NCBI GenBank assembly: GCA_964016885.1
Contig: OZ024741.1
Coordinates: forward strand, 83,576,001-83,640,000
DNA from: Eledone cirrhosa
Taxonomy: Eukaryota
Length of the DNA stretch: 64,000 bases
Reading direction: 5' to 3'
Shown: in pieces, positions 4,422 through 61,781 of the stretch
Position numbering within the stretch: position 1 is the stretch's first letter
How the letters are laid out: each line of letters opens with the position of its first letter
Notes under the pieces: model-generated
Told to the model about the DNA's origin: nothing
Seen by the model: the letters and a program-made list of their open reading frames with translations, nothing else
Database searches by the model: none
Program-made: the position numbers and the translations under genes

Positions 4422-4485
<64 letters not shown>

Positions 4486-4488
<3 letters not shown>

Positions 4489-4871
4489 AATATAGACATA
4501 GAATATTCGAAAATATTCTGTATGTTTATAATAAACATTTTGAAGACCTAATCGCTATAGAATAGAATACGTCACGTATTACAATTAGATTCTCGATAAA
4601 AGCAAGGGAAGTAATCTACGCGTTTCATTCTCGTTAGAAATCATCAGGACTACATATCCAGTGCTTTTATCGAGAATGACACAGCTAGAGACTTATAGAA
4701 TACTTAGCTGTGTACAGGAACTGGTTTGAAAGAGCGGTTGCCGGTCCGGCAGAAATTAGAAATTGGAATAAATGCTCTGAAATAGCGATATATATGTGAA
4801 TATAGACATAGAATATTCGAAAATATTCTGTATGTTTATAATAAACATTTTGAAGACCTAATCGCTATAGA

Positions 4872-4874
<3 letters not shown>
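4486..4874 (-). mobile_element. Retrozyme-like non-coding element, 310 nt monomer with ~80 bp terminal direct repeat
   Basis: GTGAATATAGACATAG... starts at both 4486 and 4796. One HHR inside, no ORF, flanked by (TA)n. Confidence 0.78.
4611..4653 (-). ncRNA. Minimal type I hammerhead ribozyme
   Basis: GTAGTC-CTGATGA-tTTCT aacg AGAAt-GAAA-CGCG-TA-GATTAC: 6 bp stem I, palindromic stem III ACGCGT, GUA site. Confidence 0.88.
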
Positions 4875-4930
<56 letters not shown>

Positions 4931-5019
4931 TATAACTTTGAATAACTTTGAAATGTTTTGGCCAGTATTGGCCCAGGCCATGTCCAACTTAATAGCACCA
5001 CCTGGCGAAGTCTTTCAAT

Positions 5020-8000
5020 TCAGGATTTGGGCACCATGGCCCATTCGAGAAGAGAATTACTGTTTGCGGAGACATATCCGGGTGTGGGTGGTTTGTCCGG
5101 GATTACTTGGTGGAATTTGTCCAAAGACTTCTTGAATTTTGTGTGGTCAGTTTCTGTTTTGACGTGTCCTGGTGTGATGTTGAAGAGAGCAGGGCCGATT
5201 GAGGTGAAATAAGTGTGCCGTATTGTTGTTATGAGTTGCGATTTAGATTTTTGTATGGGACGGATAGCACGGGGCCCAAGCCTTGGGTGTATCTTGAAGG
5301 CGATGCCAACATCATTTTGGCAGTGATGATGGAACATTTTCCACATCATGCAGATAATATAACGCTCACGGCGACGTTGGAGTGAGTAAAGTTTCAGCTT
5401 TTCTAGTCGACCCCAGTAGTCAAGGTCTGACATGCCATCTATCTTTTTCGTGATTGCCCTTTGAGGAGCTTCAAGTTTCATGATACTTTGTTTCGTGTGG
5501 GGAGACCACAGTGGACAACAGTATTCAAGGTGTGGTCGGGCAAATGTAGAGAAGAGAAGGATAATGGTGTGGGAATCTCTCGACTGGAAGGTTCTGAGGA
5601 TCCAGGAACACATTCTGCGGGCCATGTCAACTTTGCTGCTTATATGCGTGGCCCAGCTTATGTTGCTGTCCACGGTTACTCCCAAGTCTCTGATGTTGTT
5701 AGATGCCACGAGAGTTTCCCCGGAGGGAAGGGAGTACGGGAGTTTCAGAGCATCCTCTTTTCCAAAGTGGATCAGTTCGAATTTGTCTTCGTTCAGTAAC
5801 ATGTTGTTCTTTTCCGCCCATTGGGTAACAGCCAGTAGGTCTGACTGAAGGCTTATCCGGTCATCCACGCCATTGATGACCTTTTGGAGCTTGGAATCAT
5901 CAGCGAAAATTTTAATGTTGCTGTGTTTGATGATGTCAGTGATGTCATTAATATAGATGATGAAGAGAAGTGGGCCCAACACAGTGCCTTGTGGGACCCC
6001 ACTGCTGACTTTGGCTGGGCAGGATTTGTCTCCTTCAACTACAACATGTTGGGTTCTGTTTGACAGGAAGTTCTTGATTCACTGCATCAGCTTTCCAGTG
6101 ACACCAATATTGGACAGCTTTCTCAGTAGTATGTTATGATCAACCCTGTCAAAGGCCTTGCTGAAATCAAGATAGATAACATCAGTGTTGGCACCCTCTC
6201 CCAAGGCTCTCAAAATGTCATCAAAGTGATGCAGTAGCTGCGTCAGGCAATCCCTTCCATTACGGAATCCATGCTGGTTGGAGCTCAGCATATTGTTACT
6301 CTCAAGGAAGTGGGTCATTCGCGATCTCACCACTCTCTCAAATACCTTAATGATATGAGAGGTGAGTGAGATTGGACGGTAATACACGGCAAGGGATTTG
6401 TTTCCTTTTTTGAAAACTGGGACAATAGACTGGGATAGAAGGTTTTCTGGCACATATCCAGCATCCAGTGAGTTCCGCCACAGATTGGCAAGAGGAGATG
6501 CAAGTTGGTGTTGACACGCCTTCAAGACACAATCAGGGAACCTATCGGGACCTACTGCTGAATTATGCTTGATTTCCTTTATTGCCGCTAAGACATCAGG
6601 GCGCCAAACGTTATGTCCGATAAGGTGTAATGGGGAGTAACATCGCGGATACAGCCCAGATCGGCCATATCAGGATTGCTGAAAACAGAGCAGTATTGTT
6701 TCTGCAGTATCTCACCCATGGTTTTAGCATTGTCCTGAAGAGTGCCATTTTCATCAATTAGAGGGCCAACAGTAGAGCCAGTGATTTTGTGTTTGTTTGC
6801 AAATGAAAAGAACACTTTGGGATTGAGTTTGATCTTTTCAATGGCACAGGCCTCTTCAGCTCTTCTCTGATTGTTGATGAGGGACATTATGTTGTTTTGG
6901 AGGTTATGTTTTTTAATCTCTAGTGATGAAATGGCAGTCAAGTTGATGTGTTGCTGCTGACAGTATTTCAGCTTGTTGATTTTTTTGTTTGTTCTCTTAA
7001 TTTTTCTGGTGAGCGTTTTTCTATTTCTAGGGATTCTGCTCTTAGATTTGTTTATAGTTTTTAATGGGATGTGTTTTGCACATATGTTTGTAACAGTGTC
7101 CACAAATGTCTGCCAGGACTTTTTGATGTTAGTGGGTGTATGAGTGTGCGTGAAGGACCAGTCGACATTTGCAAGATCATGACTGATCGCTTCCCAGTTT
7201 GCATGGTGGAAATCCATAGCGTCAAACGGATGGACAGGAGAGATGACATTGGGTTTGTATATTGGACGGTGGAATCTCAGATCACAGAGAACCATGTCAT
7301 GATCAGAGAGTAGAGTTGTCTCCACTGCAATATTGTGGATATTGTCAGTGTGATTGCTGAAAATTAAGTCTAGGAGGTTTTTGTGGCACCTCGTTGGTTC
7401 GAGCACCAGTTGGGATAGGAAGAAATCATCCATGAAGTCAAGAAGCGATTACACTGCTTCCCTGTCAGAGGTTGAGGCAGAAGAACCTGGTGGCAGGCTG
7501 TTTGTGGACCAGTCAACTCCGGAGAGGTCGAAGTCCCCCATCATTAAGATGTTGTCAGGGTGACACTCTTGGATGAAACACTTTATGCTGTTGAGGCATT
7601 CCTTGAAGCATGGTACAGGCGTTTGGGGTGGCCTATAGAGCCCAACTACTATTAGGTTGTTGGTTTGACTGAATACAGTGACTGCTTCGCAGTATCCATT
7701 AGTGAATATGTTCATAGCCTCTGTTGAGAAAGAATTATGGACATAAATGGCAGTCCCGCCCTTTCTTCTGCCAGCGCGATCAGCACGGATGGCTTTGAAA
7801 TTTTTCACTTTCACCTCGGCTTCCAAGTGGAGGTTACTGAGATGGGTTTCAGTGAGGACGAAGAAAGAGATGTGGTTTGGATGGACATCAATGCAGTCCT
7901 CCAGGAATTTGATCTTCCATTTTTGAGTATTGGTGGAAGGGCTGATGCCTTGGGCGTTAAGCAAAAATGTAGAGGCGAGAATGGATGGTTTTAATTGTTT

Positions 8001-8039
8001 TGGTGTGTTGTTAATTTGTTTGTTTGTTAATGGCAGCAA
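5020..8039 (-). pseudogene. LINE B ORF2: APE endonuclease + reverse transcriptase, disrupted
   Basis: APE motifs LLNAQG, LTETHL, YRPP, GDF, LDLIFSN, SDH; RT motifs YRPISLTS, YLDFSKAFD, LGPLLF, FADD. Nonsense codons at 7449-7451 and 6079-6081, and a frameshift near 6600. Confidence 0.93.
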
Positions 8040-8797
8040 TGGGAGTTTGTGCAGTGGGGTGATAGTGGAGGGTGGTGCTGGGTGATAGCTCGAATGTTTT
8101 TTTCCAGTTCTTTTGCCAGATTCATTATGGCTAAAAAAGAGGAAGAAGTATCCTGTTTAGAAGACTGTTGGTGACTGTGGTAGTGGTTATTTTTATGTAG
8201 GTTATGGTTTTTGTTTTTGCTTTTATTTTTAATTTTATTTTCATTTGTCCGACGGGTCCCCGGGAGATGGGTAAAGGGACAATCCCGGTCTAAACACAAT
8301 CTGTCTCGCAGGGAAAAGGGGCAGATTTGTGGATTCCTTGTTTGAGTTATTGGTGGTCGTGTTGGTGTTAAATTAGAGTATGTATTATGGTGGTGGCTGT
8401 TTGTGGGGATAGATCGTTTTGTCCTAGGTAAATGGGTGAATTTGCAGCCACTATCCGTACATATTCTAAAGCGTAGAGAGTAGCGGCAAATGATGGGGTT
8501 TCGAGTGGGTGGGTATGTGGGTGTGTGTGTTGTGAGAGGTGTAGATGATGGTCTGAGTAGGATTTGACGACCTTTGTGGACTGTGGGAGGGAGAGTTCTT
8601 GTACTGTTATTAGAAGGTAAATTCCTTGAGATAGCAGTAGCCAAAGATGTTGTAGTAGTAGTAGTAGTAGTAGGCAGAGAAGAAGATGCTGGCAGTGGTG
8701 ATGATTGGACTGCTGGGCCAGAGAAAGGATGTGGCGTTTCCTGCTGTGAGACAGAGGCTACTGGGAGGTCAATAGTTTCATTTAGTAGATCGGCCAT
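8027..8797 (-). CDS. LINE B ORF1 (partial), two CCCH-type zinc fingers
   Basis: CRYSLRFRICTDSGCKFTH and CPFSLRDRLCLDRDCPFTH (C-x8-C-x4-C-x3-H); lies immediately upstream of and overlaps ORF2. Confidence 0.82.
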   Translation of the reverse strand: MADLLNETIDLPVASVSQQETPHPFSGPAVQSSPLPASSSLPTTTTTTTTSLATAISRNLPSNNSTRTLPPTVHKGRQILLRPSSTPLTTHTPTYPPTRNPIICRYSLRFRICTDSGCKFTHLPRTKRSIPTNSHHHNTYSNLTPTRPPITQTRNPQICPFSLRDRLCLDRDCPFTHLPGTRRTNENKIKNKSKNKNHNLHKNNHYHSHQQSSKQDTSSSFLAIMNLAKELEKNIRAITQHHPPLSPHCTNSHCCH

Positions 8798-8863
8798 TGT
8801 TGATGAATCAAGGAGTGGTTCACACTGTTGTTGTTATTGTCGTTGTTGTTGTTGCTGTTGTTG

Positions 8864-8903
<40 letters not shown>

Positions 8904-9303
8904 GTATTTATATATATATAGGCTTGGCACTTGTTGGTATAAGACGTGAATTGTCGTCTCTCCAGATTCGAAATTTTAATATTTTAAATCGACAGTAATC
9001 GGATTTATGTATGGTTTTAATTCTTCGGAGGACAAGGAAAACATACAAAAAAGATAAGTTTTTGTGCTTTGACGCAATTATTTTGAAGTATATTTTACAT
9101 ATATTACCGTTTTGAACATGTTTATTTTCACTGTATGATTCCTTGATAGGAGACAACACACACACGTGCTTTCTATTTCTCTTGCCTACCATACAGAGCA
9201 TTTTGGTTTAACTTAAGTAGATCTTGTATTAATTTAAATTTAAAAATGTATTTTTATATTTATGAACTGCTGTTGCTCACGCTGTCTCTATCTCTCTCCT
9301 TCC

Positions 9304-9339
<36 letters not shown>

Positions 9340-9344
9340 TCTCT

Positions 9345-9421
9345 CTCTCTCGATCAACGAGCTCTCTTTCTCCCTCTCTCTCGATCAACGAGCTCTCTTT
9401 CTCCCTCTCTCTCGATCAACG

Positions 9422-9430
<9 letters not shown>
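9345..9430 (+). repeat. Three tandem ~30 bp units containing CTCGATCAACGAG hairpin inside a (CT)n tract
   Basis: CTCG-ATCAA-CGAG occurs three times, separated by CTCTCTTTCTCCCTCTCT. Confidence 0.85.
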
Positions 9431-9486
<56 letters not shown>

Positions 9487-9680
9487 TGAACTTCCCCCCC
9501 ACTCTTCCCGCTATCTCTCTCGCTCCCCTCATCTGTCTCCCCCTTTTCTTTTCTTTTCTTCTGTTTCTCTTTCTTCTTTTTCTCGCTGGAGTTATATCTC
9601 TATCTCCCTCCCTCACTCTGTCCCTCTCTAACCTCTACCCTACACTTCCCACTGTCTTTCTTTCTCCCCTCCACAGCGAA

Positions 9681-10625
9681 ATGGACTGCATGCAGGAAAA
9701 ATGTGAAATCAGGAGTCAACGAAACTGGTCTAAGATGGAACTAGCGGTTTTGATCAAGGGGTGGACCATGGCTGATGGGTCTCCACCAAGCAAAAAGATG
9801 GCGGAGAACCTGAAGAGCCATGGGTTTCTGAGGACCCTGGCACAGATAGAGAGAAAGAGAAAAGAAATTGAGAAGGCGTATGTCCTCATAGCGCCTCATA
9901 TGGCGATGCTAAGCCGTGTCCTCAGGGAGGAGAAAACCGAAGGGAGGGATGAGAAGGAGAGGGAAAAGGAAGAGGAAAAAGAAAAAGAAAAGGAGGAGAG
10001 CACAAGCACGGACCTGAAAGAAAATGATATACCCTCCGTCACAGGCAGGGAGGGCAGGCCGGGCAACCAACAAGCTAAGGGCAAAGGTGAAAAGCGAAAT
10101 CACCTTCCGAAGGAGAACCAAGCGCAGAGGGACCAGTGGACAACTGTTCAAAGAAAGAACAGAAAGCACCGAGACACTGGGAGCAATAAACCCCAAGTAA
10201 TGTGCAAGTTTTTCAAGAACGGGACATGCTGGCATGGAGAGACAGCGATGGGATGCAGATTCGCCCACCCTAGGTCTCAAACGAACTATGCCCATCATAC
10301 TCGCACAACATGCCCCAGCCAAAGCCGAAATAAGCCGCTCCAGAAGTATGCTGATGTCGCGCGTGCTGCACCAAGAAGGAGAAGGCACGCACATGCCGAC
10401 GAGATACAGATGGCAGCAGCAGATCAGAAAAATTTTTTAGTGATGGCAGAGAAGATTGTGGGACAGCTGACCTCGCTGCATCGTCTCCAGAACCAGGGTC
10501 ATCCACACGAGCACTCGAGACCACCGCAGTTAAGGGACCCAGAGTGGCCGCCGCTGACACCAGACCAGGTGTCATACCGACAGCCATTACTGGCACCCCA
10601 AAAGTCACACCAGTGCTGCTGCTGA
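9681..10625 (+). CDS. LINE A ORF1: Myb/SANT-like (trihelix) domain, charged linker, CCCH finger
   Basis: RNWSKMELAVLIKGW...KMAENLKSHGFLRTLAQIERKRKEIEKAY resembles the trihelix Myb/SANT pattern; CKFFKNGTCWHGETAMGCRFAH is CCCH-like. The ATG at 9681 is preferred over 9246 because the upstream part is translated (CT)n. Confidence 0.8.
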   Translation: MDCMQEKCEIRSQRNWSKMELAVLIKGWTMADGSPPSKKMAENLKSHGFLRTLAQIERKRKEIEKAYVLIAPHMAMLSRVLREEKTEGRDEKEREKEEEKEKEKEESTSTDLKENDIPSVTGREGRPGNQQAKGKGEKRNHLPKENQAQRDQWTTVQRKNRKHRDTGSNKPQVMCKFFKNGTCWHGETAMGCRFAHPRSQTNYAHHTRTTCPSQSRNKPLQKYADVARAAPRRRRHAHADEIQMAAADQKNFLVMAEKIVGQLTSLHRLQNQGHPHEHSRPPQLRDPEWPPLTPDQVSYRQPLLAPQKSHQCCC

Positions 10626-13585
10626 ATGTCAGGGGCCTGGTGAAACTCAGCAACATGAGTAAAATTTCCTACCTGGGAGACTTAGCCATAAGCAATCAAG
10701 CACTATGCATGGCACTAACCGAAACGCACCTGACAAGCAGTATAGCAGATGCAGAAATACATATACCGAAATATACTGTATTTCGTTCGGACAGGAAGGA
10801 GAGAACTCATGGTGGGTTTGCTCTGTATATCCGTGAAGATGTCACACCAATTGTACTGTTGACACATTCAAACTCAGTCTGTGACACACTGATAATACAT
10901 ATGAAGCAACTACAGACGGTAATATGTGTCACCTATCGGCCGCCCGATGCCCCCAGTCATGAGGGTAAATTTGAGGATAGCCTAAGTAGGATAGAAGAGG
11001 TCCTTGACAAACTGGACCAGGGTCTCAAAATCCTACTGCTGGGAGACTTCAACCTACCAAAGGTCAAATGGCCTGAGGGCCACCTCCTCCCTGGAATGAC
11101 GTCAATAGAACAGAGACAGACGGAATCCCTGCTGGCCCTCACACACAGGCTGTTCATGGAGCAAGCAATACTCCTCCCAACAAGAGGCGAAAATGTCCTG
11201 GACCTCTGTTTTACGAACAACGAAGTGCTCATCCACAATGTAAAGGTGACACCAGCAATTCTCTCGGATCATAACTTAGTAGAGCTAATGATATGTGGTC
11301 CAAGAGAACCAACAGAGACAAAACCACCAAGAAGCTCCGGGACGCTATCCAACCTTAACTTATACAAGGCTAACTGGAAAAAGATTAAGAGTGAAATCCG
11401 GAAGCAAACATGGAGTGAAAACATCGCCACACAAGACACTAACACACAATTTCAACACTTCATGACAACGATACACACCTTATGCAAAAAGTGTGTCCCG
11501 GAGAAAGAGGCAAACAGACACAAAAATCTTATTCCCAGAGATAGGAAAATCCTTATGAGACGTAGAACTAAACTCTCAAACCAGTTGAATAGTCAACAAA
11601 ACCAAAACAAGAAGTAATCCTATTTGAAACGTGCACTACTTGACACCGAGATTGCACTCAAACTTTCACATGAGAATGAGAGGGCAAAGAAAGAGAACAG
11701 GGCCAGAGAAAACATTAAAACAAACCCTAAGGCCTTCTTTAAATTTGCAAAAGAAACTGCCTCAGTACACTGCAAGATTGGACCACTCTTCCACACGGAC
11801 GGTTCATTAACCGAAAATCCCCAAGAGATATGTGAAATACTGAACGAACAGTACAAAAGTGTCTTCACATGTCCACTGAGGCACATGCAAATAACGAAGC
11901 CAGAGGAGTTATTTGATGCCACAACACTGCATCAAGAAATGGCAACCATCAACCACATAGACATAACGGAGGAGGATGTGGTGTACGCCATTGATGAAAT
12001 TAGAACAGACTCGGCTGCTGGACCTGATGGATTCCCAGCAGTTCTCCTAAAAATATGTAAGCGGGCCTTAGCAACTCCACTGAAGATGCTCTTCAGAAGC
12101 TCCTTGGCTAGCGGTGTACTACCCAGGGAGCTGAAAGAAGGCACAATATGCCCTATCCATAAAGGAGGTAGTAGAGCGGAGGCCAAGAACTATAGGCCAG
12201 TCTCCCTGACGTCGCATATCAGTAAGGTCATGGAGCGAGTCGTCAGAAAGAAACTAATCACTTTCCTCGAAGAAAATGACCGCCTGACTAGCACGCAACA
12301 TGGCTTCCGCCCAGGAAGAAGCTGCCTTACAGAGCTGCTACATCACTACGACTGGGTACTGAGACAACTACTAGACAGCTCACATGTAGACGTGATATAT
12401 CTTGACTTTGCGAAGGCCTTTGACAAGGTTGACCACGGAATGATATGTCACAAACTACACGGTCTCGGCATAACTGGAAAAGTAGGTGAGTGGCTGCATG
12501 GCTTCCTAAGGGACAGAAGCCAGGCAGTCGCAGCAAATGGGGCCCTCTCGAGGGAAACACCGATAACAAGTGGGGTGCCCCAGGGGACAGTCCTGGGACC
12601 ACTACTGTTTTTGGTGGCTCTCTCGGACATGCCCTCTGTGGTGCATGCAACAACATCCCTCACTAGCTATGCTGATGACACTAAGGTAGCACAGGCAATC
12701 AAAAACCCGGCTGACGCTGCCCTCTTACAGCAGGATCTGGATGCCATATACAGATGGGCGGAAGACAACAACATGCAGTTTAATGCTGGCAAATTCCAAG
12801 CCCTACAATACAAACCTGCAAACACAAACACAAATATAGCGGAACACAGCTACACAGGACCAGGAGGGACCGATATCCCCGTGTCAAAATCGATACGAGA
12901 CCTGGGCATAGACATGAGCGATGATGCATCTTTTTCTTCACACATCATGAAGGTGGCGACAACATGCAGACGATTTGCTGGCTGGATCTTGAGGACTTTC
13001 CTTACAAGAGATCGAGACACTATGTTGACACTGTGGAGAACTTTTGTCCTAAGCCGCCTGGACTACTGCTCCCAGCTGTGGTCACCCCATAGTGTCAAAC
13101 TAACCACGGAGCTTGAGGCAATCCAGCGAAGCTACACCAAGAGGATTGCCAAGATGAGGGAGACAAACTACTGGGAGAGGCTAAAGGAACTGAACCTCTA
13201 CTCCTTGGAGCGAAGACGGGAGAGATACGCAGTGATCTACATGTGGAAAATCCTGGAGAGACTAGCACCAAACTTTGGCATTGGGAGCTGGACCAACCGT
13301 CGAACAGGACGTCACTGTGTGGTGCCAAAGGTCCCGTCTTCCACGTCTAGAATAAGGAGCAGGTATTGCAATAGCCTGGGATTCAAGGGCCCTCAACTCT
13401 TCAACAGGCTGCCGAGACATCTGCGAGACTTGCATGACGTGGAGGTGGATGTCTTTAAGAAACATCTCGACACCTTATTATCCAGGATCCCGGATGAGCC
13501 CACAGCAAGACACGAGGGAAACCTAAGGGCAGCAGCAACAAACTCCCTCCTACACCAGTGGCCAACCTATACAGGCTGGAGATAA
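10544..13585 (+). pseudogene. LINE A ORF2: APE endonuclease + reverse transcriptase with a single premature stop
   Basis: ORFs 10544..11617 and 11624..13585 are in the same frame, split by one TAA at 11615-11617. Motifs LLNVRGL, LTETHL, YRPP, GDFN, SDHN, YLDFAKAFD, GVPQGTVLGP, YADD. Confidence 0.95.
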
Positions 13586-13658
13586 AATGTGTAGCAACAA
13601 GGGCGGTGCCCCAGCATGGCCTCAGCCGGATGGCTGAAACAGGTAAAAGAGTAAAAGA

Positions 13659-14173: not shown

Positions 14174-16070
14174 TTAAGAGAGTAAAACAAAGAATCCTTT
14201 AATACATCAAAAGTTTTTATTAGCCGACAATGTTAAGGACTCATCAGGGCAATCAAAACAACAAGAGGTAATATCGGCAGATACAAGCCGGAAACTCTGA
14301 GCGCACATAAACTTATTGCCAACCCCTCCAGACTGACTATGATTATATTTAACACCCCCCCCCCTTTTTTTATGCTCCGTTCTATTATTTATTATAGTAT
14401 ATCGACTATATTTTATGCCACTTCGCACCCTCCATATATTTCGTCAATTCTGTCCCCATTAGCCTACCTTAATTCTACTTAAGTCAGTTTTTTAGATATC
14501 GTTGCGTATATGATAGTATAACATTTTCATTCCTTTTTGTAAACATTTGTAACGATACATTAAAGTTTATATACTTTAATGACTTAAACTACAGCTAATA
14601 TTATACTACCTTATTGGACGGGTTTGATATTTTTAATATTAATTTATCAAATAGGGTTTGGAGTCAATTAAAATGATTGTTTTCCTTAGTGTTTACCTAA
14701 TTTCTTAAATGCACGCGAGGCCTAAGTGTGTATATATTTGCTTTTGTTTTGTAGTTTCCGGTTGATTGTATTTATTTATTTTCTTCTATATTCTATTTGC
14801 TATTCACTGTCTGGCGTTGCTTACTCATCCACATATGTCTGTCTACTAACCTTGTAATTATAAGTATTTATATATTTTATGCCAATTTATAATATATTAT
14901 ATTATATTGTATTGTAATATTGATCCTTATTACTTACTGTTCATTATATGTAACATTATGATATTTAAACTTTATATATCATGTAAGATGTCTGGATTTT
15001 TGTAATATTGTAATATTGATCCTTATTACTTACTGTTCATTATATGTAACATTATGATATTTAGACTTTACATATCATGTAAGATGTCTGTATATTTTTT
15101 TCTGTAACATCATAATTTTTCCCTGTACCTTTATAGTGTTTTTTTGAGTATTATATAATTTATTTTTCCTCATTTATTCTGTAACCCAGTATGAATAGAT
15201 TTGTATATATTGTTTATGGTAAATGTTAGTACACTGTTAACGTATTATCATTGTATTTTATTGTGACATCTATATTGTTTCTGTAAATTAACCGGGGATT
15301 ATCTATTTTATTTTATTATATTATATTGAATTATATAATTTTGTTGTTTATTATTTGTTATATGTGTTTCTTGTAATTATATCATATTATTGCCTCATGT
15401 ATATTGGGTAGATGTATTAGTATTATTTTCACTCTTATCATGCTTATTTTTATATTCAAACTTCTAATAGGGCTCAATTTTGTGTAGTGGAACATAGATG
15501 GGTGTGTTGTTATATATGTGTGTGTGTGTGTGCGCACATATATACATGTATATATTGTACCTTTTGATTTTTAATTTGTAATTTTAATGTTGGTAAAAGT
15601 ATATTATTATTATAATGTATTATATTGTGTTATATATAATTCCTGCTCTATATAACCAAATTTGTTTAGATTTAGGTTAGTTGCTTTGGACTATATTTGT
15701 AATATGGTTCTTAATGTTATCTACATCCTTAATTATTCTTATTATATATTTTTATTATTTTTATTTTTATTTTCATTTTTATTATCATATATTTTTGTAA
15801 GACATTAGTGTATGTACACTCCATATTCTTCAGAGTTTCCGGCTTGTATCTGCCGATATTACCTCTTGTTGTTTTGATTGCCCTGATGAGTCCTTAATAG
15901 GACGAAACATTGTCGGCTAATAAACACTTTTGATGTATTAAAGGATTCTTTGTTTTACTCTCTTAATTTTTTGGCTCTGTTTAACTGCATTGAGCTGTAC
16001 CTTTTACTGTCATTTCTATAATACGAAGAGGGTGTTTGACTCTAACACGCTCCAGTATTCTAATCCTTAT
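14174..16070 (+). mobile_element. Non-coding PLE-derived element with inverted pseudo-LTR at its 5' end
   Basis: 14174-14300 is the reverse complement of 15830-15966. AT-rich interior with an ~85 bp duplication (14911-14995 / 15008-15090). HHR in the right arm; flanked by (TA)n. Confidence 0.75.
15877..15921 (+). ncRNA. Minimal type I hammerhead ribozyme
   Basis: ATTGCC-CTGATGA-GTCC ttaata GGAC-GAAA-CATTG-TC-GGCtAAT; canonical core, GUC site. Confidence 0.9.
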
Positions 16071-16169: not shown

Positions 16170-16477
16170 GAAATTACATGAATCAAAGTTCAGTTTAAAT
16201 CATTTATTTGCTTACAATTGTTTTCTCCAAACCGAGGTTTGGATTCTTCGGAGCAACTATTTAGTGATTTTTTACATACTTGACCTCCTTTTCAACACAA
16301 GAGACATATAAAAACATATGTATACATTGACCCACAGTGGGTTGACACCCATCATAATAATATAGCGTGGCAATTTACATACAAAGGTTACATTCATATT
16401 AAAGGACAAAATTAAAGTTAAAATAAAAATTAAAATAAAAGTAAAACATTGGCAGTTTAGATAAAAAATGGTTAATC

Positions 16478-16855
16478 AAGGATATCTTATACTCATGCAC
16501 AGTCACAACTATCAACTGTTCTGAAACCTATATAGGCTCTACTTCTAACTGCTTCAAAACTAGATACAATTCGCACCTCCACTCTTTCAAAAACCACAAT
16601 CTAGCCAACTCCACTTCACTATCTAGCTACATACACTATCTAAAAACTAAAAATAAACCATATACACTTAAATGGCAAGTGATAGATAATGCGACATCGT
16701 ACAAACCACCTAATAAATGTTGTAACCTCTGTCTACTAGAGACCCATACTATCATCTTCTCTAACCATAACCTCCTTAATAAAAAATCAGAAGTGTTCGC
16801 GTCTTGCCAACACCGCTTCCGACACTCTTTCCAAAACTTTAAACCCAATATATAA
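16478..16855 (+). pseudogene. PLE GIY-YIG endonuclease domain (no start codon; absent from ORF track)
   Basis: Manual translation: KDILYSCTV...ETYIGSTSNCFKTRYNSHLHSF...TLKWQVI...CNLCLLE...LLNKKSEVFASCQHR...KPNI*. Uninterrupted and homologous to the C-terminus of 39133..40497. Confidence 0.9.
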
Positions 16856-19648: not shown

Positions 19649-20189
<541 letters not shown>

Positions 20190-21704: not shown

Positions 21705-22630
<926 letters not shown>

Positions 22631-22640
22631 TTCATTATGA

Positions 22641-22735
<95 letters not shown>

Positions 22736-23440: not shown

Positions 23441-23544
23441 TATATACTTATATGAGGTTGAAGGAACAGAATAGCGGTCGCCCTCGGGTCTTCGATTTTC
23501 AGCCCCATGGATTTTATCTATTACATTCACGTATTATATTTCGA

Positions 23545-23602: not shown

Positions 23603-23749
23603 AATAAACCTTTCAAGGATTTACACAAATCCAGCCTCCTGTCATTTCATTATGATATATGTATATATATATATATATATATGTAGATATATATATGTAT
23701 ATATATATATGTATATATATAAGTATATATATATATGCATATATATATA

Positions 23750-24909: not shown

Positions 24910-25220
24910 GTGAGGTTTTTTTTACAAAATGAAAAATAACCGAGGTGTCCTACACGAGTGGAAGTATAAAGAAAAAGGGATGAAATCGAAAATGCAACTG
25001 AAGTCTTATTTTTTTTTAAATATATATATTTATTTGGGTGCTTTACCGGTTTCGCAGTTCTTCTGCTTTTCAAAAGGTGAGTTGAGATGGAGGGTCTGTG
25101 GTTTTTCTCACCTTTTGAAAAGCAGAAGAACTGCGAAACCGGTAAAGGAACCAAATAAATATATATATTTTTAAAAAAATAAGTCTTCAGTTGCATTTTC
25201 GATTTCATCCCTTTTTCTTT
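24903..25220. mobile_element. Fold-back pair of HHR element family F1
   Basis: Same sequence as 1137-1510 with a different inversion junction (~25107); HHRs at 25040-25077 (-) and 25111-25148 (+). Confidence 0.88.
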
Positions 25221-25925: not shown

Positions 25926-25935
25926 TGTATATATA

Positions 25936-26658
25936 GTATAGAATGAAACGAAATTTCATTTCTCACTCTTAGTACGGCACTTATTTAAATGTAAATATGT
26001 ATGTATACGTACATACATATATGTATACAGACGTACAGTACCATGTATATATATACATACAGGCACACATATATATATATGCACGTATCAGTTTACCGAA
26101 CATTTATTATAATGCTCGGTTTGTTCGTTTGTAAACAAACAAACAGCCTGAATTACGCCGTACAGTGTTTAGGCAACCACGTCACCTTTTTGTTCAACAC
26201 TGACACAGGAACGATGTACTAGTTTCAAGCTTATTAGCTATCGTCAGCACCGTATACCTTTCTGCCAGATGGTTGAACGTCCGAAAGTATATACTTTCCT
26301 TATGAAAATTAACGGCTGAGCAGCCTCATTTGCATATCGAGTGAGTTCAGTCGGCCAGGCGCACCGAAAACGATAAATGGAATAGAATGAAACGAAATTT
26401 CATTTCTCACTCTTAATACGGCACTTACTTAAATGTAAGTATGTATGTATACGTACATACATATATGTATACAGACGTACAGTAGCATGTATATATATAA
26501 TTCAGGCTGTTTGTTCACAAACGAACAAACCGAGCATTATAATAAATGTTCGGTAAACTGATACGTGCATATATATATATGTGTGCCTGTATGTATATAT
26601 ATACATGCTACTGTACGTCTGTATACACATATGTATGTACGTATACATACATACTTAC
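25936..26658 (-). mobile_element. Retrozyme-like element, ~444 nt monomer with terminal direct repeat and inverted segment
   Basis: GAATGAAACGAAATTTCATTTCTCACTC at 25941 and 26385; 26498-26658 inverts ~25995-26155. Homologous to the 38001 family. Confidence 0.8.
26212..26252 (-). ncRNA. Minimal type I hammerhead ribozyme
   Basis: CGGTG-CTGACGA-tAGCT aata AGCTt-GAAA-CTAG-TA-CATCG; palindromic stem III ACTAGT, GUA site. Confidence 0.87.
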
Positions 26659-26883
26659 CTTCGTGAGCCTCTTTGTTTCAAGTAAAAAGAAATTCAAACA
26701 CTCATATATGAAAAAACAACCTGTGACAACCCCCCCCCCCCTCTTATTTGAAGAACTATTGTAACGCGAACTGGCGCGAAATTTATTATAATTATTGACA
26801 AACCAATCAAATTACTTCTCGAAAAACCTGGAATTTCGAGTCACTTTTTCCATATAAAACAAGTAACATTCAGAGACCAACCA

Positions 26884-27026
26884 GATGTAAGAAAAACCAC
26901 AGACCCTCCATCTCAACTCACCTTTTGAAAAGCAGAAGAACTGCGAAACCGGTAAAGGAACCAAATAAATATATATATTTTAAAAAAAATAAGACTTCAG
27001 TTGCATTTTCGATTTCATCTCTTTTT

Positions 27027-44130: not shown

Positions 44131-44800
44131 CAGACTAGCTGACACTCACTGTAAAGTGTCTAGTGAAAAGCTGAGTACATGTACATATGTATACATGTGT
44201 GTATTTATATGCATACTAATACTTCCGTATACATATGTAGATGTACACTTTAACTTAATTGTTTAAGCGTCAGTCATACAAAAGTGAGTTAGAAGCGAAA
44301 CGAAATTTAATTTCGTTTCGTTATTTGTTTTTATCGTTTCCGCTGAACCGGTGCGTACAATGACTCACGTTCTATGCAAGTTAGTCTACCCACTACTAAT
44401 TTTCATAGAAAAAGCATATAACGATATGTGCTTTTACAATTCTCCAGAGAAGCCGGAAGATGGGTAAATATTGCTGATGAGATGTAATAACATCGAAACT
44501 AGTCCAATATTCCTGTCTGGCCCTCTGGAGAATAGAGGAAATGTGTTTCCTTGAAAACCCGTATGACTCTAAAACCCGGTCCGTCTGTGTGGTTACATAC
44601 AGACTAGCTGACACTCACTGTAAAGTGTCTAGTGAAAAGCTGAGTACATGTACATATGTATACATGTGTGTATTTATATGCATAATAATACTGCCGTATA
44701 CATATGTAGATGTACACTTTAACTTAATTGTTTAAGCGTCAGTCATACAAAAGTGAGTTAGAAGCGAAACGAAATTTAATTTCGTTTCGTTATTTGTTTT
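44131..44800 (+). mobile_element. Duplicate of the 469 nt retrozyme-like element; HHR at 44467-44511
   Basis: Near-identical to 38001-38670. Confidence 0.82.
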
Positions 44801-46980: not shown

Positions 46981-47568
46981 AAGGCGGGTAAAATTCCCGA
47001 GATCCATGGACGAGTTCTCTCCAGCGGTGTCTGTCCCTCATTATCGCTGCCATATCCTGCATCTCCAACAGACCAGTTTCTGTCCTTAGGGCATCAACAT
47101 ATGTTAACCTTGGTCTTCCTCTTCTAGTGTGTCCATGTAGGGGCTCCCAAAGCAGAACAGAGTTCAATGTCAACCCTGGATGTCGGTGAGCATGTCCAGC
47201 CAACCTCAGTCACCTCTGTTTCACTTTTGAGCTGACTTTTGGGATGCTCCCATACAGCTCTGTGTTTTTCATCCTCAGTGTATACTGATTAATGTTCGGA
47301 GCCATCCTCAGCATTCTCGTGTAGCACCCATCCACCATCTGAGTGAGTCTCTTGGTCAGTGTCCAAGTTTCAGACCCATACAGCAGCACAGACTCCACTA
47401 CAGCAATGAAGAGGCGGATTTTCATGTCTCTACGAAGGTCCGACTTCCACACCGATCTCAAGCTGTGACACGCCGACCAGGCCTTGCTCTTCCTCTCAAC
47501 CACATCATCTTCTGTATTCCCAATCTTTGCTCCCAAATACAGGAAGTCCTCAACCAATTCCAGCGGCT
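46979..47568 (-). mobile_element. RTE-clade LINE 3' fragment, duplicate
   Basis: Same ends and same stop as 43026-43615, with a few substitutions. Confidence 0.87.
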
Positions 47569-47574
47569 ATATTG

Positions 47575-47705
<131 letters not shown>

Positions 47706-47724
47706 ATATTGTATATATATATAT

Positions 47725-47840
<116 letters not shown>

Positions 47841-47875
47841 TGTATATATATATATCTATATATATATATATGTAT

Positions 47876-47990
<115 letters not shown>

Positions 47991-47999
47991 ATATATACA

Positions 48000-49275
48000 T
48001 TATGAAGAGAGAAGAAACATTTAGATATAATTATTAATAAAATGTATCATACCTAAACTGCTCCTAGATTCCTCGAATACGTAGTTTCGTGGCATAAACA
48101 AAAACAATACATCATAAAGATATAGAGTCTTTGCGAGGTCTGCCGACTTATCAAGAGGATACCTCATTTTACTAGCTTCCAGAACGCGTCTACACGACGT
48201 GAGAAAGAATCCCAAAAGGCGGAGGGGGTGATAGGCACGCGATATAACGGTCGAGAAACAGAGCTAAGCCTCTTATAACCCCGAAGAAAATACCACGGAG
48301 GCGAAGGGGGTATTTATATCGAAGCCGTAGAAGAGGTGATGAAGGGGGCGAGAAGTATGAGTAATGGCGGCTTTCCAGCAGTCACCACACTTCAAAGATT
48401 ACTCGACCAGAGGGAGTTATTAATATATTTAGAAACACACAGATACATGCGGACACACACATATACATGACTGCATGCACACCCAACCGTGAGTTAATGG
48501 TGCCAACCTCACCGATGTTGCTCAATGAATGACTGGGACAGACCAATCCGGTTGAATGAGACTGAACCAGTATCAGAGTTAAAAATACATTATGAAGAGA
48601 GAAGAAACATTTAGATATAATTAGTAATAAAATGTATCATGTATATGTGTGTGTCCGTATGTATCTGTGTGTTTCTAAATATATTAATAACTCCCTCTGG
48701 TCGAGTAATCTTTGAAGTGTGGTGAATGCTGGAAAGCTGCCATTACTCATACTTCTCGCCCCCTTCACCACCTCTTCTACGGCTTCGATATAAATACCCC
48801 CTCCGCCTCCGTGGTATTTTCTTCGGGGTTATAAGAGGCTTAGCTCTGTTTCTCGACCGTTATATCGCGTGACTATCTCCCCTTCCGCCTTTTGGGATTC
48901 TTTCTCACGTCGTGTAGACGCGTTCTTGAAGCTAGTAAAATGAGGTAGCTTCTTGATAAGTCGGAAGACCTCGCAAAGACTCTATATCTTTATGATGTAT
49001 TGTTTTTGTTTATGCCACGAAACTACGTAGTCGAGGAATCTAGGAGCAGTTTAGGTATGATACATTTTATTACTAATTATATCTAAATGTTTCTTCGTTC
49101 TTCATAATGTATTTTTAACTCTGATACTGGTTCAGTCTAATTCAACCGGATTGGTCTGTCCCAGTCATTCATTGAGCAACATCGGTGAGGTTGGCACCAT
49201 TAACTCACGGTTGGGTGTGGATGCATTCATGTATATGTGTGTGTCCGCATGTATCTGTGTGTTTCTAAATATATT
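48000..49275. mobile_element. Two inverted, differently permuted 590 nt retrozyme-like monomers
   Basis: Direct repeats 48000/48590 (minus-sense copy) and 48638/49228 (plus-sense copy); U3-A8 HHRs at 48070-48159 (-) and 48948-49037 (+). Confidence 0.85.
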
Positions 49276-49343
49276 GTATATATATATATATATATATATT
49301 GTATATATATATATATATATTGTATATATATATATATATATAT

Positions 49344-49381
<38 letters not shown>

Positions 49382-49424
49382 ATATATATATATATATATT
49401 GTATATATATATATATATATATAT

Positions 49425-49492
<68 letters not shown>

Positions 49493-50251
49493 ATATATAT
49501 ATATATATTTTATATATATATTGTATATATATATATATATATATATATTTTATATATATATATATATTTTATATATATATATATTGTATATATATATATA
49601 TATATTGTATATATATATATATATATTGTATATATATATATATATATTGTATATATATATATATATATATTGTATATATATATATATATATATTGTATAT
49701 ATATATATATATGTTGTATATATATATATATATATTGTATATATATATATATATATATTGTATATATATATATATATATATATTGTATATATATATATAT
49801 ATATTGTATATATATATATATTGTATATATATATTGTATATATATATATTTATATATTGTATATATATATATATATATTGTATATATATATATATATATA
49901 TTGTATATATATATATATTGTATATATATATTGTATATATATATATATATATATTGTATATATATATATATATATATTGTATATATATATATATATTGTA
50001 TATATATATATATATATATATTGTATATATATATAGATATATATTGTATATATATATATTGTATATATATATATATATATATATTGTATATATATATATT
50101 GTATATATATTGTATATATATATATACATTGTATATATTGTATATATATTGTATATATATATAAATATTGATATATCGTATATGTATTGTATATATATAT
50201 ATATATATTGTATATATTGTATATATTGTATATATTTATATATATATATAT

Positions 50252-50299
<48 letters not shown>

Positions 50300-50352
50300 A
50301 TATAGTATATATATATATATATTGTATATAATATATATATATGTATATATTG

Positions 50353-50387
<35 letters not shown>

Positions 50388-50490
50388 TGTATTTATATAT
50401 ATAGATATATACATATTGTATATATATATATATATATTGTATATATATATTGTATATATATATATATTGTTTATATATATATATATATAG

Positions 50491-50522
<32 letters not shown>

Positions 50523-50534
50523 ATATATATATTG

Positions 50535-50590
<56 letters not shown>

Positions 50591-50718
50591 ATATATATTG
50601 TATATATGTATATATATATATATATATATATTGTATATATATATATATATATATGTATTGTATATATATATGTATTGTATATATATATATATATATGTAA
50701 TGTATATATATATATATA

Positions 50719-50795
<77 letters not shown>

Positions 50796-50800
50796 TATAT

Positions 50801-50831
<31 letters not shown>

Positions 50832-51841
50832 TGTATATATATATATATATATATATATCGTATATATATATATATATATATATATTGTATATATATATAT
50901 ATATTGTATATATATATTGTATATATATATATATATTGTATATATATATTTATATTTTATTTATATATATATATCGTATATATATATATATATTGTATAT
51001 ATATATATATATATATTGTATATATATATATATATATATATTAAGTATAGGATTATCCAAAATGCAGTGGTGGTTAATTACTACACTGGATATGGTTGAC
51101 GTACGGTAAGAGGTTACTCTACGAGTTATGGAAGAATTGTTCAAGAAACTTAGTTCCTGATCCTTCAGTATTCCGGAGTGTATATAAAGAATGAATAATA
51201 ACAGGTAGACATCATAAAAAGGTAGTTTATTCCGTGTGCTTACAAGTGTTTCCACGGTGGTACTGCAGCCTAGTTCCGCTACGTGCAAATTCACAAGTAT
51301 TTGCAGAACTCGAATATCCAATGCTGTGACCACTGTTTCCTCAGAGCAGAATGGTAAATATACAATGTAAAAACCCTTAAGTGGGGTTGTTGGGGAAGAT
51401 AGAGTGGAACAGGAAGAGAGAAAAGTAGGGAAAATGGAGAGAGAAGGAAAGATATGCAGGGGTTGGAGAAGTAGGAGAGAGTGGCTTGTAGATATCTTAA
51501 TCAAAATGTTATGGTAGGGGTTTTATTAGTTACTTTTGGAGAGATGCGTAGATAGTTGAGGTCGGAATTATTTATTGCCCCAGAGGTCAAGTTCATAGAT
51601 GTTGAGAGGGAGGTAGGTCAAAGGTGAGAGAGAGAGAGTGTAATGGATGTAGAGAGAGATATATAGGTAGAGAGGGGACAGATAAAGTATATGTGGTGAG
51701 TGAACTTTTGGTTTTGTAGTAGTAATCTAGGAATTGTACTGAGTTACCATGTATAGTGATAAGCAGTGTATTGTCTTGTAGTGAGGGGGAGAAGAGAAGG
51801 TTGTTAGCTAGAAAGTGGTGTTGTCGTTACGGGTTCGAATG

Positions 51842-52483
51842 TTAAGTTATTTTATAGTGAGAGAATTTAGCTTTTAGTTTGTGGTTGCAGTATAATGATC
51901 GTTCAATTCTATCGTTAAGTAGTTTGTTTTGGGATTTTAGTATGTAAAATAGCTCAAGGTTACATAACCTGCAGTACTTCAAACCACTCCGATATGCATT
52001 TGCGCTGGAAAGTATATCCCATTTTAAGGTGAACTGTTGGTTGTGTTCACGGAGTTGCCAGGTCTTGTTGGCGAGCGTGGTCACAAAACGGTGATTCTGA
52101 TGTTTGATTGAGAATCGATGACGGTACCAGCGAGATTTAAACGATGTGGTGGTAGATCCGATATAGTACCATTTCTGGTCGTCCGATTCAACCGTGCATT
52201 GGTAAACAATGTTGGACTTTAGGCATTCATTCTGCAATGGACATCTTTCAGGTAGATGGCAGTTACATGCTTTGTTGTGGGTAGCGGGTATACCATGGAT
52301 AGGTTGTGATAGCGGTACAGGTGGGTTGTGCAATACCCGTCTCCCATTTAGTGGTTGGGAGGCAGATATTGCGTTCTGCCCATCTGTTACTAAAATGTTT
52401 TGTTTTGTAGAGTTGTTTAATTGCCTTAAGTTAAGTTTTTTTATGTATGCTTCAAGGTTTGGTGCCGTGGAGTATGATAGTCC
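51842..52483 (-). pseudogene. PLE linker + GIY-YIG endonuclease (5'-truncated)
   Basis: LSYSTAPNL...CNCHLPERCPLQNEC..IVYQC..YIGSTTTSFKSR..CRLCNLE..LLNDRIE..CNH. Confidence 0.9.
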
Positions 52484-52720
52484 TCTGGGGCAATAAATAA
52501 TTCCGACCTCAACTATCTACGCATCTCTCCAAAAGTAACTAATAAAACCCCTACCGATAACATTTTGATTAAGATATCTACAAGCCACTCTCTCCTACTT
52601 CTCCAACCCCTGCATATCTTTCCTTCTCTCTCCATCTTCCCTACTTTTCTCTCTTCCTGTTCCACTCTATCTTCCCCAACAACCCCACTTAAGGGTTTTT
52701 ACATTGTATATTTACCATTC

Positions 52721-55186: not shown

Positions 55187-57020
55187 GTATAGGATTATCC
55201 AAGATGCAGTGGTGGTTAATTACTACACTGGATATGGTTGACGTACGGTAAGAGGTTACTCTACGAGTTATGGAAGAATTGTTCAAGAAACTTAGTTCCT
55301 GATCCTTCAGTATTCCGGAGTGTATATAAAGAATGAATAATAACAGGTAGACATCATAAAAAGGTAGTTTATTCCGTGTGCTTACAAGTGTTTCCACGGT
55401 GGTACTGCAGCCTAGTTCCGCTACGTGCAAATTCACAAGTATTTGCAGAACTCGAATATCCAATGCTGTGACCACTGTTTCCTCAGAGCAGAATGGTAAA
55501 TATACAATGTAAAAACCCTTAAGTGGGGTTGTTGGGGAAGATAGAGTGGAACAGGAAGAGAGAAAAGTAGGGAAAATGGAGAGAGAAGGAAAGATATGCA
55601 GGGGTTGGAGAAGTAGGAGAGAGTGGCTTGTAGATATCTTAATCAAAATGTTATGGTAGGGGTTTTATTAGTTACTTTTGGAGAGATGCGTAGATAGTTG
55701 AGGTCGGAATTATTTATTGCCCCAGAGGTCAAGTTCATAGATGTTGAGAGGGAGGTAGGTCAAAGGTGAGAGAGAGAGAGTGTAATGGATGTAGAGAGAG
55801 ATATATAGGTAGAGAGGGGACAGATAAAGTATATGTGGTGAGTGAACTTTTGGTTTTGTAGTAGTAATCTAGGAATTGTACTGAGTTACCATGTATAGTG
55901 ATAAGCAGTGTATTGTCTTGTAGTGAGGGGGAGAAGAGAAGGTTGTTAGCTAGAAAGTGGTGTTGTAGTTACGGGTTCGAATGTTAAGTTATTTTATAGT
56001 GAGAGAATTTAGCTTTTAGTTTGTGGTTGCAGTATAATGATCGTTCAATTCTATCGTTAAGTAGTTTGTTTTTGGATTTTAGTATGTAAAATAGCTCAAG
56101 GTTACATAACCTGCAGTACTTCAAACCACTCCGATATGCATTTGCGCTGGAAAGTATATCCCATTTTAAGGTGAACTGTTGGTTGTGTTCACGGAGTTGC
56201 CAGGTCTTGTTGGCGAGCGTGGTCACAAAACGGTGATTCTGATGTTTGATTGAGAATCGATGACGGTACCAGCGAGATTTAAACGATGTGGTGGTAGATC
56301 CGATATAGTACCATTTCTGGTCGTCCGATTCAACCGTGCATTGGTAAACAATGTTGGACTTTAGGCATTCATTCTGCAATGGACATCTTTCAGGTAGATG
56401 GCAGTTACATGCTTTGTTGTGGGTAGCGGGTATACCATGGATAGGTTGTGATAGCGGTACAGGTGGGTTGTGCAATACCCGTCTCCCATTTAGTGGTTGG
56501 GAGGCAGATATTGCGTTCTGCCCATCTGTTACTAAAATGTTTTGTTTTGTAGAGTTGTTTAATTGCCTTAAGTTAAGTTTTTTTATGTATGCTTCAAGGT
56601 TTGGTGCCGTGGAGTATGATAGTCCTCTAGGGCAATAAATAATTCCGACCTCAACTATCTACGCATCTCTCCAAAAGTAACTAATAAAACCCCTACCATA
56701 ACATTTTGATTAAGATATCTACAAGCCACTCTCTCCTACTTCTCCAACCCCTGCATATCTTTCCTTCTCTCTCCATCTTCCCTACTTTTCTCTCTTCCTG
56801 TTCCACTCTATCTTCCCCAACAACCCCACTTAAGGGTTTTTACATTGTATATTTACCATTCTGCTCTGAGGAAACAGTGGTCACAGCATTGGATATTCGA
56901 GTTCTGCAAATACTTGTGAATTTGCACGTAGCGGAACTAGGCTGCAGTACCACCGTGGAAACACTTGTAAGCACACGGAATAAACTACCTTTTTATGATG
57001 TCTACCTGTTATTATTCATT

Positions 57021-60940: not shown

Positions 60941-61610
60941 CTACTGTACATATATTTTGAGAAAGGTCCCGGCTCTAAGGTGTCTGCATGTCCCGAAGAA
61001 GTCGGTTCTGAGGTTTATCAGGCCGCTTCCACCTCTTAGTATCTCGAGGGTCTCGTTCAGGCATAGTTTGCATATGCAAGATCCCCCTTTATCGGGTGGT
61101 ACTTTCCTGATTATGTACCAGGCCAGAGAGTATGGGGTCCTGTCCAGCTTAAGCTTCCAGATCAGGTCGGAGAGAGCTGTGCTTTTCCTTTTGGCCTCCT
61201 TCTTGAATGAATGGCGATGGTTGTACCAGCGGTCCTTAAAGCTCGTTGATGTGGCTCCTATGTAGAGGTGTTCGGAGTTGGGGGTTTTAACCCTACAACC
61301 GTACACTATGTTCTTCTTGAGACATTCATTACCAAGGGGGCATGATTCGGGGTTTCTACAGTTGCAGAGGGTGGGCGGCCTCTGCGTGCTTAGATTAGGG
61401 TTCTCATTATGTGTTACATGTTGGTCTTCCCCCATGCTCGGTGGGGGGTCCTTGGGTCTGTTTGTGTTTCTTGGGTGGGCTCTGGGTCCCCCCTTCCCTC
61501 CTTTCACATGGTTCTGCTGAGTGTTTGTATTGCCATCTTCTGGTTGTGTGTGGTTTTTAAGCCTACTTCTGTTGATGCTAGCTATGTGTTGGGCCAAATT
61601 TCTCGTGGTG
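60941..61610 (-). pseudogene. PLE linker + GIY-YIG endonuclease (5'-truncated)
   Basis: STTRNLAQHI...CNCRNPESCPLGNEC..IVYGC..YIGATSTSFKDR..CKLCLNE..LINLR..CRH. The first residues of the listed ORF come from the inverted pLTR. Confidence 0.9.
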
Positions 61611-61781
61611 GAATTCATATGACTGCAGTTCCCCAGTGAATTAACAACCCAGCAAGGAACTGGGCATATCAAAGTATTGACAATATCATACACCTAAACA
61701 ACATATGTACTTGTCTATACCATACTAATTCAAACTGCCTGAAGAGGTCACAGCCAAAGATGGCTGTCACTGAAATATATA

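Follow-up and report, generated by a model that had tools for sequence, protein, structure and literature searches.

The closest described counterparts of the repeat discussed here are the non-LTR retrozymes of animals and the Penelope-like elements (PLEs). Units of animal retrozymes are given as 170-400 nt in the account of Cervera & de la Pena (2020, PMC7229834), and as 51-972 bp in the 2026 survey of Li, Clavereau & Pollet (bioRxiv 10.64898/2026.07.22.740005), where retrozymes are argued to derive from the pseudo-LTRs (pLTRs) of PLEs. A PLE insertion typically consists of a partial tandem, an inverted copy adjacent to its 5' end and a tail at one end, as set out in PMC8557442 and PMC3846280. 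For the Poseidon PLE, Frangieh et al. (2024, PMC11167929) describe extension of both target strands from two internal starts that bound the tail. By the same account cleavage by the hammerhead ribozyme (HHR) is unneeded, insertion being equally good with a dead hammerhead, and the substrate that dominates in vitro is unprocessed RNA. U3:A8 covariation combined with a palindromic helix III has been described as an HHR variant of PLEs (PMC4209133). For the integration of PLEs and animal retrozymes, circular and linear tandem templates are a matter of proposal rather than of demonstration (PMC4209133, PMC7229834). The O. vulgaris repeat paper (PMC13282606) reports 31 recently active Penelope-like families, in an account of them that leaves ribozymes unmentioned.

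The DNA analysed, referred to as the window, is a 64,000-nt stretch of Eledone cirrhosa. It is eukaryotic repeat DNA, 37% of which is (TA)n array, and it contains a 590-nt unit in the form of four arms (A to D) at two loci. At the 48 kb locus, arm A (47995..48640, minus strand, 1.09 units) and arm B (48637..49277, plus strand, 1.08 units) meet head-to-head over 4 nt common to both (48637..48640). The RNA sense of each arm, minus for A and plus for B, was assigned from the orientation of its ribozyme. Arm A extends from unit position ~25 at its 5' end to ~77-80 at its 3' end, which abuts (TA)n and is called start site 1. In arm B the 5' end is at ~195-197 and the 3' end, start site 2, at ~242-245. 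It thus reaches some 165 nt past the end of A, and this additional stretch is the 'tail'. An earlier note on this DNA described the first copy as one unit plus ~50 bp of redundancy and the inverted copy as one unit plus ~48 bp with another opening, and in both respects its measurements and coordinates were right: 47995..48050 in A (minus strand) matches 48585-48640 with 1 mismatch in 56, and 49227..49275 in B (plus strand) matches 48637-48685 with 1 mismatch in 49. It was equally correct that the copy at 21.8 kb has the same opening as A. This is arm C (21818..22459, minus strand, 1.07-1.08 units of 593 nt, with start site 1 as its 3' end), in which the redundancy is 40-49 nt according to how the junction is read. 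C is followed by arm D (22471..22632, plus strand), an inverted arm of 162 nt that is 5'-truncated and also has start site 1 as its 3' end. Each of the three full arms exceeds one unit, by 53-56 nt in A, 48-49 nt in B and 40-49 nt in C. At both loci the arms are arranged head-to-head, their 3' ends pointing outward into TA. The ends of A, C and D lie ~77-82 nt from the predicted ribozyme cut site and that of B ~242-245 nt from it, so that the offset between arm ends is nil at 21.8 kb and ~165 nt at 48 kb.

The target array on the left of the 48 kb locus (47565..47994) is (TA)n with TTG interruptions, and since the interruptions have the same orientation in the array on the right (49278..51055), the array is probably older than the insertion. 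Reiterative copying of the end of B was rejected as the origin of the (TA)nTTG flank, given that the array has one orientation on both sides and continues far beyond them. The closed unit is non-coding, as the earlier note had it, its longest frame having 85 codons from stop to stop and 48 codons from an ATG; the open reading frame for reverse transcriptase (RT) and GIY-YIG endonuclease that marks an autonomous PLE is absent from the 590 nt. Compared with C, arms A and B agree in 16 alignment columns, and they have 11 and 8 private differences, respectively. The shared letters at 48761 and 48977 are rare in run X1, in which C's letter accounts for ~99% and ~97% of the depth. On these alignments A and B may well be one insertion from a single source that subsequently decayed, a reading that fits both the shared and the private letters.

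The hammerhead motif of the unit is of type I. Its core is U3:A8, helix I has 5 bp, the helix II domain comprises 59 nt, helix III is a palindrome of 10 nt, and the cut site is GUC. A descriptor, built after the motif had been spotted by eye, matches B and C and none of 5000 dinucleotide shuffles of the unit. The ribozyme of C (minus strand within 21818..22459, core 21977, predicted cut after 21898) is intact, and it is the only one. That of B (48948..49037, plus strand, U3:A8 core from 48953, predicted cut after 49032) has private changes at 48948, 48950 and 48965 that affect helices I and II, where reads and contigs have the intact letters (e.g. 123/123 and 191/191 reads). That of A (48070..48159, minus strand, predicted cut after 48075) has lost the base 5' of the cut-site UC, and it escapes the descriptor because a single change breaks the helix III palindrome. 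The claim of one HHR per unit thus stands for the motif and must be qualified for its state, both copies at 48-49 kb being damaged. A scan for the canonical CUGANGA missed the ribozyme because its core is U3:A8. Rfam gave no hammerhead at the gathering score over the 64 kb, nor at E<=10 over 47900-49400, and its matches were chance miRNA hits on TA/TG repeats. When the closed unit was folded computationally, the predicted active fold lay 4.2 kcal/mol above the minimum. A ribozyme that switches on and off during transcription was also considered and found unsupported, the probability of helix I swinging between 0.0 and 0.95 with length.

Other hammerheads occur in the window. A second U3:A8 family, with a short helix II and a 6-nt palindrome, is found at 1143-1504, 19758-19962, 24910-25214 and 26882-27024, often as near-perfect palindromes. 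Three more non-coding HHR units of 310, 444 and 469 nt lie at 4478-4874, 25935-26661, and 37995-38673 with 44133-44797; each forms a copy of 1.3-1.45 units with one ribozyme and is strongly structured (z -3.7 to -9.4). Hammerhead-like CUGANGA...GAAA motifs are present in further TA-embedded elements at 15883, 20511, 23549, 41453, 59340, 59755 and 61739.

An internal control came from six further head-to-head insertions of the window, each independent, with one 99.7% duplicate left uncounted. In five of them one arm is longer at its 3' end, by 102, 162, 170, 144 and 159 nt, and three of these five carry GIY-YIG frames; the sixth (1143) has no offset value, and its left arm is ~60 nt longer. The script used for this control gives 157 nt for the 48 kb locus, with a TA boundary that over-extends A. 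Five 5'-truncated PLE frames lie in TA arrays (16445-16852, 39103-40494, 51845-52516, 55987-56658 and 60944-61693), and their one-sided tails measure 144-162 nt wherever an inverted arm exists. The motifs CxxC-E and CxH occur in all five GIY-YIG frames, and all four that are long enough also contain the CxCX5C linker; in PMC8557442 these features are given for the Hydra clade, whose members insert into (TA)n. The frames are accordingly taken to be Hydra-type by motif alone. Three of the four scanned have Pfam matches, below the curated cut-off. No longer relatives turned up for the 464-aa PLE frame, and two weak Octopus matches were obtained for a PLE frame. Since coding PLE insertions show a similar one-sided offset and two start sites have been published, the second opening at 48 kb is most likely a PLE tail rather than a free permutation.

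Read data point in the same direction. Four runs were mapped onto one unit (48639-49228), with 1758 contigs of the family in X1. In raw reads from another sample under the same species label, a reduced-representation library whose junction reads may stem from few loci, loose ends in TA stand behind 48684 in 216 reads and behind 49112 in 208 reads (both among 18 listed of 153). In unit terms 48684 is the end of B and 49112 that of A, C and D, so that two 3' ends recur, at ~80 and ~243 nt counted from the predicted cut site, and four X1 contigs also enter TA behind 48684. The junction of B itself continues TGTA, unlike the pure TA of the reads, and its private letters are absent from these reads (at 48965, another letter in 191/191 and 29/29); the TA-junction reads therefore derive from other loci. 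The 'permutation' is most likely not free, as the two openings recur in independent reads. At 48948 the depth is 297,048 units, ~11 with B's own letter, and while depth is not copy number, we read it as a family of thousands of copies or more. The 590-nt repeat is thus a high-copy, non-coding family with one hammerhead motif per unit.

No contig spans the whole unit, and joints that go back by ~590 were rejected as evidence of tandems or circles, since arms A and C themselves cross that point. Library cuts presumably account for the read ends and the mixed loose ends seen at 49074-49075 and 49145-49150, positions that coincide with AATT and CCGG or are close to them. Dips in depth along the unit were left out of account because divergence from the reference lowers depth. 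Run X5, small and of unrecorded kind, offers no more than a lead: a single main variant was seen with even contig depths of ~109-163 round most of 48639-49228, in contrast to the mixed variants of X1. Sixteen runs of other organisms had shares of 0.07-0.23; X4, the only one of them that was mapped, yielded 2 contigs, 95-99% alike, and the shares of the rest carry no weight as evidence.

It is suggested here, with a probability of roughly 0.55, that the 590-nt repeat is a non-autonomous passenger of a TA-targeting PLE, probably of the Hydra clade, with two fixed internal starts and most likely a linear tandem RNA as template. That a PLE reverse transcriptase pasted it into (TA)n is likely, in agreement with the earlier note, which had drawn on the inverted arrangement and the TA target. 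The enzyme would introduce nicks into each strand of (TA)n and use an RNA longer than the unit. A tandem source locus elsewhere would be transcribed, and PLE protein made in trans would bind the RNA and extend both nicked target strands, one from site 1 and the other from site 2 at 48 kb, and both from site 1 at 21.8 kb. Each cDNA might then pass an uncleaved hammerhead and stop before the next one upstream, after which the two 5' ends could be joined via the few bases that they share. In this case the redundancy would be a partial tandem, or pseudo-LTR, and a PLE tail would account for the second opening. The 5' end of each of the six full arms, from four non-coding families, falls on the downstream side of the upstream cut site, at 0.30-0.81 of the distance to the 3' end (x/e); a linear RNA with a single upstream cut would fit these positions too. 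All four arms could be copied from a single linear RNA if it measured 1.37 units or more. Since the window has no arm of such a length, the family would need a tandem source, or else template jumping or a circle. The 64-kb window holds no such source locus, nor any array with two or more complete HHRs. The explanation also has to accommodate a tail of ~165 nt, as against the 30-40 bp described, and a unit that has no sequence in common with the coding PLEs of the window. A point against a linear template is that the overshoot is only 40-56 nt from either start site, a narrow range that such a template does not predict; if stops were uniform we estimate about 1 chance in 20 for B, from n=3.

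A covalently closed 590-nt RNA could account for the narrow overshoot. The element and its two start sites would be the same, the circle would be made by double hammerhead cleavage and ligation, and the RT would complete one lap and stall ~50 nt into its own RNA:cDNA hybrid. An excess of 53-56 (A), 48-49 (B) and 40-49 nt (C) would then follow whichever start site was used, and all six full arms of the four non-coding HHR families measure 1.07-1.45 units with one ribozyme. The closed unit also folds better than its shuffles on the ribozyme strand (z -3.4, 0/40), whereas the other strand has no such excess (z +1.1, 35/40); z is -9.4, -8.5 and -3.7 for the three other non-coding units, and only -1.9, +1.3 and -0.7 for the last 590 nt of three coding PLEs. 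Coral, mussel and axolotl are described as expressing animal retrozyme repeats in the form of circles (PMC7229834), and for PLE tandems a circular template has been proposed (PMC4209133). We nevertheless regard this as a possible but less probable origin. The overshoot is not constant across families, being 87, 129-136 and 210 nt in the others, and the offset between arms, which the earlier note had taken as the footprint of a circle, needs none: the two openings recur in reads, fragments of coding PLEs are offset as well, and two starts are described in PMC11167929. No arm here has the two ribozymes required to excise a monomer. PLE-type HHRs are reported to cleave poorly in vitro (PMC4209133), only 1 of 9 frog dimers was cleaved according to bioRxiv 10.64898/2026.07.22.740005, and in PMC11167929 the PLE substrate was predominantly unprocessed RNA. 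Should the circle, less probable as it is, prove real, thousands of copies would record circular-template retrotransposition and explain the origin of pseudo-LTRs.

The linear passenger reading must also be set against two explanations in which the unit is no independent element or the arrangement is not a product of retrotransposition. It would be surprising if the unit were only the pLTR or 3' region of a longer coding PLE known here from truncated copies. The HHR type, the tail and the inverted arms are those of coding PLEs, and pLTRs and retrozymes are considered related by descent (bioRxiv 10.64898/2026.07.22.740005), yet A, B and C pass from the end of the unit into its own start with no coding body between, and the share of the 1758 X1 contigs that continue into unlike sequence is 0. 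Homology to the coding PLEs of the window is likewise lacking: just 9 of 270 matches of the unit to the rest of the window fall outside a TG-rich stretch (best E 0.44), and no 3' or pLTR sequence is held in common with the PLE fragments in the 64 kb. A rare coding relative may exist beyond the window. Still harder to credit is an artefact of assembly or fold-back, or rearrangement at the DNA level in unstable TA arrays, even in a window that is 37% TA array and includes a gap of 200 N and several block duplications of 99% identity. The 11 and 8 private differences of A and B mean that B is no mirror artefact of A, both types of TA junction are present in independent raw reads, and the same architecture recurs in unrelated families.

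Comparison with known systems supports filing the 590-nt repeat as a non-autonomous PLE/retrozyme-type family, not as a proven circRNA element. Like the non-LTR retrozymes (PMC7229834; bioRxiv 10.64898/2026.07.22.740005) it is a non-coding repeat with one type I HHR in each unit (that of A with one-base damage), GC below 50%, a high copy number and co-existing PLEs. The earlier note considered it larger than most reported animal retrozymes, which holds against 170-400 nt (PMC7229834) but not against the 51-972 bp of the 2026 survey, within which it falls. It differs from the retrozymes of these accounts in being seen in the window as head-to-head arms of 1.07-1.09 units and not as tandem arrays, and in its PLE-type U3:A8 HHR with the 59-nt helix II domain. 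With the EN+ PLEs of the Hydra clade, as presented by Craig et al. (2021, PMC8557442), it has in common the (TA)n target, the partial tandem (40-56 nt in A, B and C), the HHR, the 5'-adjacent inverted copy at both loci and the one-sided tail, and Hydra-type frames occur in the same window. It differs from them in having no ORF, a tail of ~165 nt in place of 30-40 bp, and no match to local coding PLEs. Poseidon PAc of Anolis (PMC11167929) has two internal RT starts downstream of the HHR cut, which define two 3' ends as seen here, and its starts lie 85-92 nt after the cut site compared with ~80 here; PAc is, however, autonomous and has a 30-40 bp tail, and the starts in our case are inferred from genomic ends. 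MRC1 of Chlamydomonas, a non-autonomous PLE in PMC8557442, is similarly non-coding, pLTR-forming and moved in trans, but elements of its type have 3' sequence in common with autonomous families, and HHRs are lacking from most Chlamys elements. Plant LTR retrozymes (bioRxiv 10.64898/2026.07.22.740005) are also HHR-bearing, non-autonomous and of similar size, but they are characterised by a type III HHR in true LTRs, a PBS and PPT, a 4-bp TSD and dependence on Gypsy elements, whereas the topology here is type I with one HHR per arm. By analogy, the mode of working would be that of a PLE-mobilised non-LTR retrozyme.

In this sense the family is one more PLE-dependent hammerhead repeat, and its use is as a test bed: with two fixed starts 165 nt apart, circular and linear models predict opposite copy lengths. 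The window further suggests that TA-targeting Hydra-type PLEs have tails of 100-170 nt and move non-coding passengers, neither of which was found in searches of the published articles.

Some other features of the window may be mentioned. The same short non-TA stretch precedes TA both after arm D (22633-22650) and at 23646-23662, after an unrelated element at 23455, and could be a shared target motif or a template switch. From 36349 to 64000 the TA arrays have periodic TTG interruptions, whose reading strand is mostly minus up to ~46 kb and plus from 47.5 kb, with mixed orientations at 41.6-43 kb and 45.1-47 kb. Block duplications of at least 99% identity within these arrays (38003-38667/44133-44797, 43031-43614/46984-47567 and 51050-52876/55192-57017) represent either recent tandem duplication or assembly error. 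At 30400-33405 there is a 3-kb palindrome with arms 94% identical, in which the one short frame scanned gave no protein family. Two LINE-type elements with AP endonuclease and RT lie on opposite strands at 4944-8855 and 8924-13650; the second has relatives 67-68% identical in other assemblies, and the best named match of a nearby LINE frame is to Argonauta, at 56%.
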